IMG/VR virus record: IMGVR_UViG_2671180603_000016 | Origin: a virus | Taxonomy: Duplodnaviria > Heunggongvirae > Uroviricota > Caudoviricetes | DNA length: 8,632 nucleotides | Direction: 5' to 3' (one strand) | In this document: positions 2,522 through 8,632 of the stretch, piece by piece | Position numbering within the stretch: position 1 is the stretch's first letter | How the letters are laid out: each line of letters starts with the position of its first letter | Position numbers and translations under genes: made by a program | Notes under the pieces: generated by a model | What the model was told of the DNA's origin: nothing | Seen by the model: only the letters and a program-made list of their open reading frames with translations | The model's database searches: none

Positions 2522-2548
2522 AGCCCGCCGGTTCAGGCGGGCTTTTTT
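2522..2548 (+). terminator. Intrinsic terminator immediately upstream of stf
   Basis: 8-bp stem AGCCCGCC / GGCGGGCT, loop GGTTCA, then TTTTTT (2543-2548). The stf ATG at 2560 follows after GTGGGGTGAAT. Confidence 0.55.
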
Positions 2549-2559
2549 GTGGGGTGAAT

Positions 2560-5340
2560 ATGGCAGTAAAGATTTCAGGTGTACTGAAAGACGGCACAGG
2601 AAAACCGGTACAGAACTGCACAATCCAGCTGAAAGCAAAACGTAACAGCACCACGGTGGTGGTGAACACGCTGGCCTCAGAAAATCCGGATGAAGCCGGG
2701 CGTTACAGCATGGACGTTGAGTACGGTCAGTACAGCGTTATTCTGTTGGTGGAAGGATTCCCGCCGTCACATGCCGGGACCATCACCGTGTATGAAGATT
2801 CCCGACCCGGTACGCTGAATGATTTTCTCGGTGCCATGACGGAGGATGATGCCCGTCCGGAGGCACTGCGCCGTTTTGAGCTGATGGTGGAAGAGGTGGC
2901 GCGTAACGCGTCCGCGGTGGCACAGAACACGGCAGCCGCGAAGAAATCAGCCAGCGATGCCAGCACATCAGCCCGTGAGGCGGCAACCCATGCGACTGAT
3001 GCTGCAGATTCAGCACGTGCAGCCAGCACGTCAGCCGGACAGGCCGCTTCGTCGGCTCAGTCAGCGTCTTCCAGCGCAGGAACGGCATCAACAAAGGCCA
3101 CTGAAGCCTCAAAAAGTGCTGCCGCTGCAGAGTCCTCAAAAAGCGCGGCGGCTACCAGTGCCGGTGCGGCGAAAACGTTAGAAACGAATGCGGCAGCGTC
3201 ACAACAATCAGCAGCCACTTCTGCATCCACCGCGACCACGAAAGCGTCAGAAGCTGCCACCTCAGCCCGGGATGCGTCGGCTTCAAAAGAGGCGGCAAAA
3301 TCATCAGAAACGAACGCATCATCAAGCGCCAGTAGCGCAGCTTCCTCGGCGACGGCGGCTGCAAATTCTGCGAAGGCGGCCAAAACGTCCGAGACGAACG
3401 CCAGGTCTTCTGAAACGGCAGCGGGACAGAGTGCCTCAGCTGCGGCAGGCTCAAAAACAGCGGCTGCGTCGTCTGCCAGCGCCGCGTCAACAAGTGCCGG
3501 GCAGGCCTCAGCCAGTGCCACCGCCGCCGGAAAATCGGCAGAAAGCGCCGCATCATCCGCTTCAACAGCCACAACGAAGGCTGGCAAAGCCACTGAGCAA
3601 GCCACTGCAGCAGCGAGGTCTGCTTCTGCAGCAAAAACCTCTGAAACAAATGCAAAGACTTCAGCAGACAATGCTGCTTCCTCTAAGGCAGCAGCCGCAT
3701 CGTCAGCCAGTTCAGCGGCGTCATCGGCATCATCTGCGTCTGCTTCAAAAGATGAGGCGACCAGACAAGCGTCAGCAGCGAAAGGTAGTGCCACGACAGC
3801 AACAACGAAAGCATCAGAGGCGGCAGGCAGTGCGACGGCTGCATCTCAGAGCAAAGTTGCTGCTGAATCCGCGGCAACGCGCGCCGAGACAGCAGCAAAA
3901 CGGGCAGAGGATATTGCATCCGCCGTGGCGCTGGAGGATGCGAGCACGACGAAAAAGGGGATAGTACAGCTCAGCAGTGCGACCAACAGCACTTCCGAGT
4001 CACTGGCGGCAACGCCAAAAGCGGTTAAGGCGGTAATGGGTGAAACGAACAAGAAAGCGCCCTTAAATAGTCCTGCACTGACCGGAACGCCAACAACACC
4101 AACTGCGCGACAGGGAACGAATAATACCCAAATCGCAAGCACGGCTTTCGTTATGGCTGCGATTGCCGCCCTTGTAGATTCGTCACCTGATGCACTGAAC
4201 ACGCTGAACGAGCTGGCTGCGGCGCTGGGCAACGACCCGAATTTTGCGACCACCATGACTAACGCGCTTGCGGGTAAGCAACCGAAAGATGCCACCCTGA
4301 CGGCGCTGGCCGGACTTACTACTGCGGCAGGCAAGTTTCCGTATTTTACGGGGAATGATGTCGCCAGCCTGGCAACCCTGACAAAAGTCGGGCGGGATAT
4401 TCTTGCGAAATCGACCGTTGCTGCCGTTATCGAATACCTCGGTTTACAGGAAACGGTAAACAAGGCTGGTAACGCCGTTCAGCGTTCCGGCGATAAAATG
4501 ACCGGAGAACTGAAAATTGGCACGGTGAATGCGCTGCGAATTTTCAATGATACCTTCGGTCTAATTTTCCGTCGTTCAGAAGATTTTCTTCATTTCATTC
4601 CGACGGCTGAAGGACAAGGCGAAAACGGTAATATCGGCCCATTAAGGCCATTCGCTATAAATCTGAGAACAGGTGCTATATCTGTCAGCCACGGGGCCAA
4701 AATTAAAGGAGGTCTAGCTATTGGAGCTACTGATAACGCACTGGGTGAAAACTCCATTGTTCTGGGAGATAACGACACCGGATTTAGGCAAGATGGAGAT
4801 GGTATTATTAGCTTCTATTCAAATGGTTCGCGCATCGGACATATTGATGAGTTAGGATTACATCTTTATAAAGATATTGAATCTAATGGCAGCAATTTTA
4901 GATTAAAAAGTAATTACCGCCACCACATTACATTCGCCAACGAAGACGGAAGAATTCGTATGTTTTTGTGGAAAGATAACGGTGGTGATGGTGTTCATAT
5001 TAATAACGGTTCAGATGGTGGTGGTGATTTCATTTTTAAAACAGATGGGGGATTTGCGCTGGGAAGTGGTGCGCAAGTTGCGTCTAGTGGCGATATTTAT
5101 GGTTCAGTGTGGGAAAACAACTGGTTAAGCACATGGCTGCATAATCATGTCGTTCGGGATATTCGTCTTGGCAGCATTGAATATAAAAACGTATGGCGCG
5201 ACTACGGCTTTGGCGATGCGTCAGGTTATGTTTTAACAGCCGCAATTAACAGCAATGCGGATGATATTGTCGACACTGTTGCCAGAAGGCCAATTCAGAA
5301 ATTGATTGGGGGAATATGGTACAACGTGGGGAGTGTTTAA
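2560..5340 (+). CDS. stf: Side tail fibre protein Stf (926 aa): lambda-type N-terminal attachment domain, long Ala/Ser/Thr-rich shaft, Mu S / P2 H-like variable C-terminal domain
   Basis: ATG 2560 ([26 protein letters not shown]...) with GGGGTG SD; an in-frame GTG at 2554 is less likely. Continuous ORF to TAA 5338-5340. GC content drops and sequence style changes after the crossover site at 4427-4452. Ends [18 protein letters not shown], mirrored by the alternative cassette. Confidence 0.9.
2935..3910 (+). repeat. Low-complexity Ala/Ser/Thr-rich shaft region of stf built from degenerate short direct repeats (approximate bounds)
   Basis: Reiterated units such as AAAACGTCAGAAACGAATGC / AAAACGTCCGAGACGAACGC (KTSETNA) and [13 protein letters not shown]. 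The same region recurs in the truncated copy at about 1770-2370. Open antisense frames here follow from GCN codon bias. Confidence 0.6.
4427..4452. repeat. Left crossover site of the invertible segment (gix/pix-like, 26 bp), inside stf
   Basis: TTATCGAATACCTCGGTTTACAGGAA. Matches the reverse complement of 7343-7368 at 22/26 positions, with identical central dinucleotide. From memory, close to the Mu gix site. Confidence 0.75.
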
Positions 5341-5341
5341 G

Positions 5342-5869
5342 ATGATGCACCTGAAAAATATTAAGGCCGGGAATCCGAAAACACCGGAACAATACCAGCT
5401 AACTAAAAAAGCGGGCGTGGTATGGCTCTTTTGCGAAGATGGCAAAAACTGGTATGAGGAACAAAAGAATTTTCAGCCAGACACCATAAAAATTGCTTAC
5501 GATGAGAACAACATCATCGTTGCTGTCAGTAAAGACGTTTCAACTATTAATCCTGAAGGGCTAAGCATAGTTGAAGTTCCTGATATTACGGCAAATCGTC
5601 ACGCAGACAATAACGGAAAATGGATGTTTCTGGATGGTAAAGTAGTAAAGAGGGAATATACAGAACAGGAACTGCAACAACAGGCCGAATCACAAAAGGC
5701 CGCATTGCTTTCCGAAGCTGAATCAGTCATCCAGCCGCTGGAACGCGCTGTCAGGCTGAATATGGCAACAGACGAGGAACGCACACGACTGGAAGCATGG
5801 GAACGCTACAGTGTTCTGGTCAGCCGTGTGGATACGGCAAATCCTGAATGGCCACAAAAGCCTGAATAA
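5342..5869 (+). CDS. tfa: Tail fibre assembly protein (Tfa/U-type chaperone), partner of the expressed stf end
   Basis: ATG 5342 lies 1 nt after the stf stop, with GGGGAG SD. N-terminus [23 protein letters not shown] is paralogous to the inverted tfa' ([22 protein letters not shown]). C-terminus ...[25 protein letters not shown] is Tfa-like. Confidence 0.85.
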
Positions 5870-5874
5870 AAATT

Positions 5875-5894
5875 AAGGCCCGATAGCGGGCCTT
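5875..5894. terminator. Bidirectional stem-loop between convergent tfa and tfa'
   Basis: Perfect 8-bp stem AAGGCCCG / CGGGCCTT with loop ATAG, in the 28-nt gap between the two convergent stop codons. No strong U-tract on either side. Confidence 0.4.
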
Positions 5895-5897
5895 CTC

Positions 5898-6431
5898 TCA
5901 TTCTGGTTGTTCGGGAAACGTTACTGGCAGGCTGGAGGTGTCTGTGGATTCAACCTTCTGCGCATAGAGCATCCACTCGGTTAATTTTTGTTTATTCTCA
6001 TCGGAAATGATGCCCAGCTGTAGCTGAGAGTCCCACAGCTGGGTTTTATCCCTGACGAGCTGCAGCAGGCTCTGCTTTTCATTTTCCGCTTGTTGCCTTT
6101 GCTCTTCCTCGGTATAAGTTCGCTTTATCACCGCACCATCTTTGAACATCCAGTTGCCCGAAATATCAGCCCGGCGATTTGCTGTAATATCAGGCAACTC
6201 AACGACACTTAAACCTTCTGGATTAATTGCTGATACATCCTTGTCTATAGCAATAATTATTCCCTCAACTGTGTAAGCCAGTTTTATTGTATCCTCCTGA
6301 AAGTTTTTTAATTCCTCATGCCAATTTTTTCCATCTTCGGACCATAACCAGATAACATCAAAATTCTTTGTTAGCTGGTATTGTTCAACGGTTTTTGGAT
6401 TACCTGCGACAATGTTTTTTAAATGCTGCAT
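5898..6431 (-). CDS. tfa: Tail fibre assembly protein, alternative copy (tfa', U'-type) belonging to the silent cassette
   Basis: 177-codon ORF on the minus strand. Its ATG (6429-6431) follows the stop of the alternative stf end by 2 nt. Tfa-family N- and C-terminal motifs are present. Confidence 0.85.
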
Positions 6432-6433
6432 GA

Positions 6434-7360
6434 TTATACCTGCGATACGTTATACCATGTTCCGTTAATTAACTTTTGTATTGGTCTGAATACTGCCGGA
6501 TCATCACCATCGACTTCACCGATAATACCAAGCCCCGTGATTACATGGCCTGATTTTTCATACATCACGCCTTTCTTCATGGTCTGAACAACTCGTGTGC
6601 CAAGTCTGACATCTCTCACATAGCGGGAATCAAAGTTACCGTAATCCGAGGGATTAACACGTCCCGTAATATTTATGGTTTTATTACTTTGAATGCTTCC
6701 GGAGACAAAGCGCATAACATGGACGTTATTAGCATAAACATCCAGATTACCATCGCCTTTTTGTTTAAAGCCCGTGTCATTATCACCCAATACAATCGAA
6801 TTACCGCCAAGAGCACTGGATGTTCCGATACCCAGTGCACCATTCAGTTGACCACCAGATAACGGCAGTGCACCAACATCTCCTGCTGAAGGTTTTCTGG
6901 TGGTGTAAAATTCGGACCAGTCGGCTTCAAAACCATAACCATCACGGGCTGAACGATAAAAAATACCGCCATTTTTATAATTAATCCGAAACTGAGCTGC
7001 AGGACAACTTCCTTCTCCCATATAAAAATGAATAATTAACGTTGATGCACCACTAATAGTTGCGTTATAGGCTCCGCTACTCCAGTTCCATCCAACTGCT
7101 TTATCATTCGCAACGGTGCTTCCTGTTTTCCCTAAGGCAAACGCACCAACATGACTTGCTTTTAATGTGATATCGGAGGAACCATCAAAAGCCACATTGC
7201 TTATTTTCCTGGCAGTTTTTAATTTTGCAGCTGTAGAAGCATTGCCGGATAGTTCACCAGAAAGGCCACCGCTGAATGTTTGTCGATTAGTCCAGGTATT
7301 CGCTGTACTGAGTAACGGTATTTTCTCCCCGCTTGTGCCGAGTTCTCGTAAACCGAGGTT
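6434..7360 (-). CDS. Alternative stf C-terminal variable cassette (Sv'), start-less; expressed only after inversion fuses it to the stf constant part
   Basis: Minus-strand frame is open from the crossover site (7360) to TAA at 6434-6436 with no plausible own start or SD. Predicted fusion reads ...[22 protein letters not shown]...[28 protein letters not shown].... Shares [20 protein letters not shown] and terminal [17 protein letters not shown] with the expressed stf end. Confidence 0.75.
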
Positions 7361-7368
7361 TTAGATAA
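7343..7368. repeat. Right crossover site of the invertible segment (gix/pix-like, 26 bp)
   Basis: TTCTCGTAAACCGAGGTTTTAGATAA, the inverted partner of 4427-4452. About 10 further bp of stf constant-region homology (GCCATTATC) lie on its outer side. Confidence 0.75.
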
Positions 7369-7422
7369 TGGCGGTTTCTGGCCTGCATGGCATGATTTGT
7401 GCTTTTGGACGGGAGATTCAGC

Positions 7423-7656
7423 GTGCTGATTGGCTATGTAAGGGTATCAACAAATGACCAGAATACAGACCTGCAACGAAACGCTCTTGTTTGTGCAGGA
7501 TATGAACAAATATTTGAAGATAAATTAAGCGGAACAAGGACAGGCCGACCTGGATTAAAACGTGCTTTAAAGCGCCTTCAAAAAGGTGACGCACTGGTTG
7601 TCTGAAAACTGGACTGACTGGGTCACTGTATGCGGCATCTTGTCGTGCTGGTGGTG
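7423..7656 (+). pseudogene. pin: DNA invertase (Pin/Gin/Hin serine recombinase) remnant: N-terminal catalytic region only, with premature stops
   Basis: GTG 7423 with GGGAG SD. Encodes (M)LIGYVRVSTNDQNTDLQRNALVCAGYEQIFEDKLSGTRTGRPGLKRALKRLQKGDALVV, then in-frame TGA at 7603 (Trp position in Pin/Gin) and TGA at 7615 (Arg position), then LGHCMRHLVVLVVEA. The helix-turn-helix C-terminal half is absent. Confidence 0.8.
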
Positions 7657-7749
7657 GAAGCCTAGAAAAAGTATCGGGTGTTGCTGAACCGTGTTGATAC
7701 ATCAACTGCACCTGATATTGAGTGGCCTACGAACCCTGTCAGGGAGTAA
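7657..7749 (+). pseudogene. tfa: Relic of the 3' end of a lambda-type tfa, fused to the invertase remnant
   Basis: Reads [33 protein letters not shown]-stop (TAG 7663, TAA 7747-7749). From memory, lambda Tfa ends ...[30 protein letters not shown]. Distinct from the two intact tfa copies in the window. Confidence 0.6.
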
Positions 7750-7763
7750 TCATTGGGATTATG

Positions 7764-7796
7764 CCGCAGCACGTCTTAAGCAAGAACGTGCTGCGG
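7764..7796. other. GC-rich stem-loop between the tfa relic and the 3' end of the methyltransferase gene
   Basis: 10-bp stem CCGCAGCACG / CGTGCTGCGG with a 13-nt loop. A T-run (7807-7812) lies 10 nt downstream on the + strand; no U-tract on the - strand. Possible weak or bidirectional terminator. Confidence 0.3.
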
Positions 7797-7803
7797 TTGG
7801 ATG

Positions 7804-8472
7804 CTATTTTTTCCCTGAAGCGGAAAACATTACTACAGTACCTTGAACCTTGGTTTTAACATTCTCGAAATGCTCTGAGAGTATATGTGTTAAGCCTTCT
7901 TCGGAATCTTTTGTGTTTGAAAAGATGCCTTTCTGATTGTAAATGCGCATCAGTTTTTGACCGAAGCTATTGTGCACAACTCCATCGCCAAGAATTGTGG
8001 CTCCGTATAGAGTTCCATCATCAGTTAAGGCCTGCGCCGCATTGCGTATTACACAGCTTTTTGTAGATATATTTCCAGGCAGGCAGTGAAGAAGGTAAAA
8101 CATGGAAATGGAATCAAATTGACCATGTAACGCCGCGGGATAAGGTTCAAAAACATCATGGCTAATTTTATGTTTAATTTTTGATTCCCCAGCCCTTGTA
8201 GATGCCGCGTTCAGGCTAGCTTCGTTCAAATCCATTAAAGATATCAGACTACTCTCAGGTACGTGAGTAAGGTAAAACCCAGTTCCAACACCAATATCCA
8301 GATGGTTGTTACCTAAATGTTCCAGAAAGTGTGGAAGAAGGTGTTCCTTTGTAGGACATCCCCATGCAAGCCGATTTGATACTCCCAAAACCCACCAGTC
8401 ATAAAGCTTTAGGGTAAGTGGTGTGTAAATTTTAGCCCCATCATCTGTGTTTTTTTTCATTAATTTCACCAT
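7804..8472 (-). CDS. Class I (Rossmann-fold) SAM-dependent methyltransferase, substrate unknown; likely prophage cargo
   Basis: 222-codon ORF. Motif I HLDIGVGTGFY, acidic post-I residue (ISLMDLN), motif II-like FDSISMFYLLHCLP, motif III-like LTDDGTLYGAT. No DPPY/NPPY or PCQ/ENV DNA-methyltransferase motifs. A second ATG at 8458-8460 (MKKNT...) has a better SD-like GGTGA and may be the true start. AT-rich relative to the tail genes. Confidence 0.8.
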   Translation of the reverse strand: MVKLMKKNTDDGAKIYTPLTLKLYDWWVLGVSNRLAWGCPTKEHLLPHFLEHLGNNHLDIGVGTGFYLTHVPESSLISLMDLNEASLNAASTRAGESKIKHKISHDVFEPYPAALHGQFDSISMFYLLHCLPGNISTKSCVIRNAAQALTDDGTLYGATILGDGVVHNSFGQKLMRIYNQKGIFSNTKDSEEGLTHILSEHFENVKTKVQGTVVMFSASGKK

Positions 8473-8501
8473 ATTATAGTTTTATTTGTGAATTAAATCA
8501 A
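8473..8501 (-). promoter_or_regulatory. Candidate sigma70 promoter for the methyltransferase gene
   Basis: On the minus strand: TTGATT (rc of 8496-8501), 17-nt spacer, TATAAT (rc of 8473-8478), abutting the first ATG. A start near 8466 would give a very short leader before ATG 8458-8460. Confidence 0.35.
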
Positions 8502-8528
8502 TTATGGCGATGAATTACAAGGGGTTAA

Positions 8529-8632
8529 ATGCTGCCGCAGCATAGCGATATTGAAATAGCCTGGTATGCTTCGATACAGCAGGAGCCGAATGGCTGGAAG
8601 ACCGTCACCACACAGTTCTACATCCAGGAATT
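8529..8632 (+). CDS. Hypothetical protein, 5' end only (continues beyond the window)
   Basis: ATG 8529 preceded by AAGGGG at -6 to -11. Open for 34 codons to the window edge (MLPQHSDIEIAWYASIQQEPNGWKTVTTQFYIQE). Not recognised. Divergent from the methyltransferase gene. Confidence 0.35.
   Translation, partial: MLPQHSDIEIAWYASIQQEPNGWKTVTTQFYIQE

Follow-up and report, generated by a model that had tools for sequence, protein, structure and literature searches.

How did the last codons of a lambda-type tail fibre assembly gene (tfa) come to lie directly behind a broken invertase gene, and what became of the invertible tail-fibre segment next to them? The question is raised by the window, i.e. 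the whole 8,632-nt stretch of DNA that was analysed, at its right-hand side, where the original prediction had seen the mark of an invertible module replacing a part of a lambda-type fibre operon.

The second half of the reading frame that runs from 7606 encodes the C-terminal end of a tail fibre assembly protein of lambda type. By alignments and Pfam, the tfa 3' relic (7654..7749, + strand) consists of codons 164-194 and the stop codon TAA. In phage PhiR26_1 the tfa gene is intact and codes for 194 aa; the DNA of the relic was 98-99% identical to it, and 85-90% identical to lambda's own tfa (orf-194). The 31-aa relic peptide matched the Pfam family PF02413 (Caudo_TAP) with E = 3e-13 at profile positions 104-130 of 131, the C-terminal end. 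Thus, the last ~30 codons of a lambda-like tfa are present directly behind the truncated pin, as had been predicted, with 31 codons supported by Pfam and by the identity to PhiR26_1; the start of the relic, on the other hand, had to be moved from 7657 to 7654/7655. The relic has no start codon of its own and, with only codons 164-194 of ~194 left, is a gene fragment rather than a member protein. It also has an internal in-frame TAG at 7663-7665 (a TGG-to-TAG change). The RefSeq/PGAP label for the EC958 equivalent of window positions 7666-7749 is ‘tail fiber assembly protein, missing N-terminus’.

The similarity to PhiR26_1 goes beyond the relic: window positions 7652-8632 were 99.5% identical over 981 bp to the tfa end and the methyltransferase region of that phage (L002 9001-9981). 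Between the relic and the convergent methyltransferase gene, direct folding revealed a strong hairpin with a U-run (7763..7797, + strand; RNA fold -28.5 kcal/mol, z = -4.47). This hairpin is conserved with PhiR26_1 and is probably the old tfa terminator. A terminator scan missed it, and the sole call of that scan, the right crossover site pixR, was discarded as a false positive. The next gene (7804..8472, - strand; an ORF with Pfam methyltransferase domains) codes for a class I SAM-dependent methyltransferase and is a ybcY-like cargo gene. The methyltransferase gene stands behind an intact tfa in PhiR26_1 and in the prophage of strain 2013C_3653 and is the normal follower of a lambda-type tfa; the tfa-methyltransferase module was present in 3795 of 5426 E. 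coli genomes.

Could the peptide encoded in 7654-7749 owe its resemblance to chance or be a part of a live small gene? PGAP does annotate an overlapping 45-aa ‘hypothetical protein’ at 7722-7859 (+ strand; RefSeq WP_001309429.1). However, besides the relic end this ORF takes in the terminator hairpin and the 3'-terminal part of the convergent methyltransferase gene; it is probably a spurious prediction that recurs with each occurrence of this module. The 981-bp identity to the tfa-methyltransferase region of an intact phage, the Pfam E-value, the missing start codon and the in-frame TAG of the window copy also speak against a chance match or a live gene, a reading to which we give next to no credence. 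With a similarity far beyond chance, the sequence at 7654-7749 is what is left of a lambda-type tail fibre assembly gene that no longer functions.

Immediately upstream lie codons 1-77 of a pin/gin-type invertase (7423..7654, + strand), delineated by Pfam and by alignment to e14 pinE, Mu gin and the Phi1 invertase. Intact relatives have 184-199 aa. Of the 145 positions in the Pfam Resolvase profile the stump matches 2-85, which leaves the catalytic domain incomplete, and the C-terminal helix-turn-helix DNA-binding domain is absent, with tfa sequence following codon 77. Two nonsense codons, TGA at 7603-7605 and TGA at 7615-7617, interrupt the stump; its PGAP label is ‘recombinase family protein, missing C-terminus’. 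Past the first stop (7605) the pin remnant continues in the same frame to 7654, and the pin and tfa relics therefore abut without a spacer.

Aligning the junction region to lambda-type tfa genes and to intact pin genes placed the breakpoint at 7654|7655. The stump is identical to e14 pinE from 7628 to 7654, and identity in the alignment to the intact tfa begins at 7652/7655; base 7654 is a pin-specific G and base 7655 a tfa-specific T. The fusion is in frame, from Pin codon 77 to Tfa codon 164. At base level, then, the right junction cuts through both pin and the old tfa, just as the original prediction had it. All that the two parents have in common at this junction is TG (7652-3) and GGA (7656-8), an imperfect 5-of-7 microhomology, and we conclude that the right join was made by illegitimate recombination.

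The choice of the reference was of importance here. The Gin-like invertases of E24377A and of ST131 Phi1 were tried and set aside as breakpoint references, since their alleles diverge from the stump after 7613; it took e14 pinE to trace the stump as far as 7654. We observed that the stump is a mosaic: nucleotides 1-190 are 95-100% identical to Mu gin, while nucleotides 191-232 (window 7613-7654) are 83% identical to e14 pinE and only 50% to gin. A search for a donor with exactly this invertase allele found none. Therefore, either the stump itself is mosaic or its donor is unsampled.

To see what the junction had replaced, we compared the window with two loci where stf, tfa and the methyltransferase gene are uninterrupted, namely phage PhiR26_1 (L002) and the prophage of strain 2013C_3653 (L011). 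Both have the gene order J-lom-stf-tfa-methyltransferase. Homology of the window to either comparator is lost at ~4031 and regained at 7652, with the same boundaries in each. Between these points the window has a 3.6-kb block, compared to ~2.1 kb of stf 3' and tfa 5' sequence in the comparators; what is missing from the lambda-type operon is 1.6 kb of the stf 3' part and 0.49 kb of the tfa 5' part. This is the replacement of the 3' part of stf and the 5' part of tfa by the invertible module that had been proposed from the window alone. The 2013C_3653 prophage had been considered as a comparator at the same attachment site (ompW-trp), but it is at the DLP12 site, and was kept as the second uninterrupted comparator; no uninterrupted prophage at ompW-trp was found.

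The left edge of the block lies within the hybrid side tail fibre gene stf (2554..5340, + strand; 928 aa), as seen from the ORF and its alignments. The N-terminal part of the gene is of lambda type up to ~4017 and the remainder, which spans the left inversion site, is of P2/Mu type. Up to 4031 the gene is 94.4% identical to the PhiR26_1 stf. In a three-way alignment, the informative sites of the window are lambda type to ~4017 and P2 type from 4032. The left recombination interval is thus 4018..4032, at the end of a conserved fibre motif. The style switch inside stf that had been predicted does exist, although it was expected at the left crossover site and is found ~400 bp upstream of that site (4427-4452). 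Since the switch occurs inside a motif common to both fibre types, we conclude that the left exchange was homologous.

The relatives of the inserted block are of a different phage type. Window positions 3935-4447 are 95.7% identical to the H fibre gene of a P2-like ST131 prophage (L008), just upstream of its crossover site, and positions 4427-6487 are 91.5% identical to a Mu-like prophage (L005), with the S gene match starting from 4427. Collinearity with both modules continues through the region from pixR to the invertase, spacing included. The phage relatives of pixR and the stump at >90% identity were all Mu-, P88- or P2-like, and no lambda-type phage was among the 60 listed of the 95 records matched. 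The sequence comparisons support the module-replacement reading as right in substance.

How widespread is this junction, and did it arise once? A 201-bp junction probe was covered at >=80% in 536 of 5426 complete E. coli genomes, and the exact junction string occurred in 30 IMG/VR predicted-prophage contigs. The probe gave no match in 50,697 phage records, and the exact string was absent from 185,579 species-representative genomes. We compared 36 copies of the junction (the window, 5 genomes and the 30 IMG/VR contigs), in 35 of which the stump was readable. The breakpoint was identical in 36/36 copies, and a TGA at pin codon 65 was common to 35/35 readable stumps. Further stops are nested: a subset of copies adds the TGA at codon 61, and a sub-subset, with the window and EC958 included, also has the relic's TAG. 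None of the 35 copies, when checked, had an open Pin(1-77)::Tfa(164-194) fusion frame. What would have spoken against the predicted module replacement, an intact pin-tfa junction of this form as the normal state in phages, was not what we observed: pin is dead in every readable copy, and no phage record carries the junction.

The prophages that carry the junction occupy at least three attachment sites: ompW-trp (the window, EC958), potAB (L003, L007) and the lambda attB ybhB-bioA (L004, L010). They differ in fibre-tip alleles, and some also in the downstream gene. Such diversity, as well as the aberrant rearrangements seen at the pixR side in some IMG/VR copies (L014, L016), would suit a recurrent hotspot, where the same pin-tfa junction forms independently, e.g. 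by aberrant action of an invertase at a pseudo-site. Against this stand the identity of the breakpoint in all 36 copies and, in the 35 readable ones, the shared codon-65 TGA and the flanking substitutions LGHC and VVEA; common descent would produce shared derived mutations of this kind, independent events would not. Nor does the junction resemble a 26-bp crossover site. Recurrent origin is therefore very improbable and, judging from these mutations, effectively refuted. The identical breakpoint together with the nested nonsense mutations shows a single origin followed by decay. By these comparisons the junction did not form in the window's own genome; it is one old scar common to the 536 E. 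coli genomes.

The single origin was demonstrated for the right junction only, as the left side has been reshuffled between lineages, with other stf', tfa and stf alleles and, in L003, an extra motif repeat. The whole module with the window's alleles was present in only 6 genomes, which indicates that the interior and the left side were reshuffled repeatedly with the right scar fixed. Some variation was seen inside the relic as well. In L004 (5383 onward), L010, L018 and L022 the relic ends with PTGPIIE or PKEPDTI and not with PTNPVRE (~7725-7750), and the prophages with the altered relic end have a diguanylate cyclase gene downstream in place of the methyltransferase gene. Altered codons along with a swapped downstream gene suggest a further recombination point inside the relic.

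With a probability of roughly 60%, we read the relic as the right edge of one ancestral event that put a Mu/P2-type invertible fibre module into a lambda-like phage. The recipient would have been a lambda-like phage with the order J-lom-stf-tfa-methyltransferase. From left to right, the incoming module would have consisted of the end of the fibre constant region, the left crossover site, a pair of alternative fibre tips, either one accompanied by a chaperone gene, the right crossover site and the 5' part of the invertase gene. On the left, the exchange would have been homologous, inside the fibre motif of both parents (~4018-4032), and on the right illegitimate, joining invertase codon 77 to tfa codon 164 at the 5-of-7 microhomology and destroying both genes. 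The scar would then have been inherited and would have spread among lambdoid prophages while nonsense mutations accumulated, and inversion would be catalysed in trans by the invertase of a co-resident prophage, e.g. the P2-like Phi1 of ST131.

Insertion followed by deletion would give the same product. A lambdoid ancestor may have gained a complete module with an intact invertase gene; this module either landed in front of a lambda-type tfa or was joined to a tfa-methyltransferase cassette by a subsequent recombination. Deletion between microhomologies would afterwards have removed the 3' part of the invertase gene, the intervening DNA and the 5' part of tfa, with the same net replacement. Short imperfect microhomology, such as that at the breakpoint, is typical of spontaneous deletions. 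The codon-65 nonsense mutation present in all copies could mean that pin was already dead before its truncation, a pseudogene free for deletion, and two steps would fit it equally well. The mosaic stump shows an earlier recombination in pin, and the fibre region has other repeats too (the tfa 3' end again after the methyltransferase gene, and the lom/stf duplication, both described below). Still, no intermediate was seen in the records covered; the sampled junction copies are all identical; no lambda-type phage with a close intact homologue of this invertase was among the 60 listed of 95 records; and one event more is required than in direct replacement. For these reasons we regard the two-step course as rather unlikely and would favour replacement in one step.

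Although its neighbouring invertase gene is broken, the invertible segment itself is complete. Two 26-bp crossover sites in inverted orientation, identified by inverted-repeat and half-site analysis, flank the segment. The left site, pixL (TTATCGAATACC TC GGTTTACAGGAA; 4427..4452, + strand), corresponds to Phi4_5prime and the right site, pixR (TTCTCGTAAACC GA GGTTTTAGATAA; 7343..7368, + strand), to Phi4_3prime of Forde 2014. Between them the expressed U-type tail fibre assembly gene of the module (5342..5869, + strand; Caudo_TAP E = 8e-37) is followed by the silent alternative tail fibre assembly gene tfa' (5898..6431, - strand; Caudo_TAP E = 5e-34) and by the silent alternative fibre C-terminal cassette stf' (6434..7342, - strand), whose flipped ORF is intact. 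Both chaperone genes of the module are intact. The native fibre has 928 aa, and inversion in silico joined stf' in frame to give an intact fibre of 935 aa. A functional invertase gene beside the segment is absent; there is only the 77-codon stump with its stops.

Does the segment still flip? We built a synthetic post-inversion junction of the pin side from the EC958 allele, a sequence that is absent from EC958 itself. Full-length matches to this flipped junction were found in 151 genomes, and all 30 among the matches listed were 100% identical. The native junction was found in 375 genomes, EC958 and U13A-U15A among them, while carriers of the flipped junction include the ST131 strains JJ1886, JJ1887, MNCRE44 and U12A; both orientations thus occur among ST131 genomes. 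Orientation also differs among similarly named, possibly related strains, 4/0 being flipped and 4/1-1 and 4/4 native. With both orientations in near-identical genomes, the sequences indicate that the segment still flips and that the module works as a switch. Furthermore, both Phi4 orientations were reported in PacBio reads of one EC958 culture, in the accessible text of Forde et al. (2014, PLoS One 9:e104400; PMC4134206).

The synthetic junctions replaced an earlier comparison. OZ040035 (L007) had been taken as a simple flipped copy and was rejected after a segment-wise comparison, in which the cassettes at both ends were similar but of different alleles; as it is not a clean flip, the inversion test was redone with junctions from the clonal EC958 allele. 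In this genome (NZ_OZ040035.1, potAB site) both ends of the segment have similar fibre-tip cassettes and the same inner half-site, and the two orientations would therefore encode similar fibres. Two IMG/VR contigs showed other rearrangements: L014 has lost the start of pin, its inner half-site running straight into the gene near codon 13-16, and L016 combines pixR with an unrelated inner stretch, TTTTCCCAGAACC. Deletion by an invertase may account for these, as may inversion involving a secondary site or a further prophage.

As for the enzyme, the same text of Forde et al. (2014; PMC4134206) calls the Phi4 invertase ‘severely truncated’, proposes inversion in trans and suggests the Phi1 enzyme. 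We found an intact invertase of 199 aa in a P2-like Phi1-type prophage of an ST131 genome, along with near-identical crossover sites. The invertase acting in trans would accordingly come from another prophage of the same cell, the P2-like Phi1 of ST131 being one candidate.

The stump may have retained one function. By homology to the enhancer annotated in P1, we predicted a Fis-dependent recombinational enhancer inside the stump (7441..7512, strand not assigned). In the P1 record the enhancer is mapped to cin nt 19-90, and our placement relied on this annotation and on Hin papers; a literature search for coordinates of the Mu ‘sis’ enhancer found nothing. The predicted stretch equals Mu gin and the intact Phi1 invertase gene at 71/72 positions. 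It lies 142 bp upstream of the breakpoint and was spared by the truncation, which would explain efficient flipping. With 4/72 variable positions in this stretch versus 16/160 in the rest of the stump, numbers too small for a conclusion, we saw no clear signal of selection on 7441-7512. The stump may persist because of a cis-acting Fis enhancer, defining a lambdoid lineage with a working two-state switch that needs the invertase of an unrelated co-resident prophage; we offer this tentatively, at somewhat less than an even chance. If true, a lambdoid lineage that keeps its switch would be present in ~10% of complete E. coli genomes, and there would be a regulatory dependency between prophages, which could couple the fibre states of several prophages per cell.

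The architecture of the module is the one of the Mu G segment with gin, the P1 C segment with cin and the e14 P segment with pin. Common to these and to the window is the order constant part, crossover site, Sv-U, inverted U'-Sv', crossover site, invertase, and so is the position of the enhancer, predicted in the case of the window, inside the 5' coding region of the invertase gene. Gin-family invertible tail-fibre switches were reportedly treated by Sandmeier in 1994. Unlike the Mu, P1 and e14 switches, the module of the window belongs to a lambda-like prophage and follows a Stf N-terminus of lambda type, and its own invertase is down to 77 codons with stops, which makes the switch dependent on a foreign invertase. 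Compared with the lambda stf-tfa operon as represented by PhiR26_1, the window has the relic, the terminator hairpin, the convergent methyltransferase gene and the second tfa fragment at 99.5% identity, whereas only codons 164-194 of tfa itself are left.

The closest known system is Phi4 of E. coli ST131 EC958, which is the same locus: window positions 7200-8632 are 99.5% identical to EC958 1487722-1489154. As described in the accessible text of Forde et al. (2014; PMC4134206), Phi4 shares with the window the 26-bp crossover sites, a 3.1-kb invertible segment and a truncated invertase. That text makes no mention of a fusion of the truncated invertase to a lambda-type tfa relic, nor does it give the breakpoints, the origin of the module or its spread in the population. 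The left side of the window differs from EC958 by the absence of ISEc12 in lom, by other fibre-tip alleles and by an extra lom/stf duplication.

The feature is therefore a known kind of tail-fibre mosaicism, widespread in E. coli and largely described already, and the pin-tfa scar reveals no new kind of system. Both fragments are in RefSeq, and the truncated invertase and inversion in trans at this locus were published in 2014 (PMC4134206, accessible text). What the analysis adds is the base-level position of the breakpoints, the evidence that the scar arose once and then spread, and the finding that the enhancer-homologous stretch was kept. The locus is a base-resolved example of host-range modules moving between unrelated phage types, with a homologous exchange in a conserved fibre motif at one edge and an illegitimate join that killed two genes at the other. 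It explains how, in the pandemic ST131 clone, a Phi4-type switch that lacks its own invertase can still flip. For annotation, two small pseudogene fragments and an overlapping ‘hypothetical protein’ can be treated as one scar.

Repeats were observed on both sides of the window. The tfa 3' end with its hairpin (window 7652-7798) is repeated downstream of the methyltransferase gene with 89% identity, as a ‘tfaX’ fragment. In EC958 (L001) this repeat is at 10502-10649, beyond the right end of the window, whose last ~100 bp begin it. A methyltransferase gene flanked by direct repeats of the tfa end suggests insertion by recombination between tfa genes. The tfaD-ybcY-tfaX arrangement of DLP12 in K-12 is the same kind of cargo arrangement.

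At the left-hand side there is a diverged tandem duplication, in which a lom fragment (1040-1122 vs 2373-2455) is 96% identical and the first ~1 kb of stf (1370-2371 vs 2537-3558) is 87% identical between the copies. It creates a chimeric 354-aa ORF (1397-2461), where the Stf N-terminus runs into the 3' piece of lom. The duplication is absent from EC958 and OZ040035. With the stf copies only 87% identical, unequal recombination between two different prophages seems a better explanation than a recent duplication. Finally, EC958 has lom (L001 1296-3817; window lom 646-1245) split by ISEc12, an IS21-family element, and stf labelled a pseudogene. The window is free of this insertion, and in this respect its prophage copy is less degraded than the published reference.
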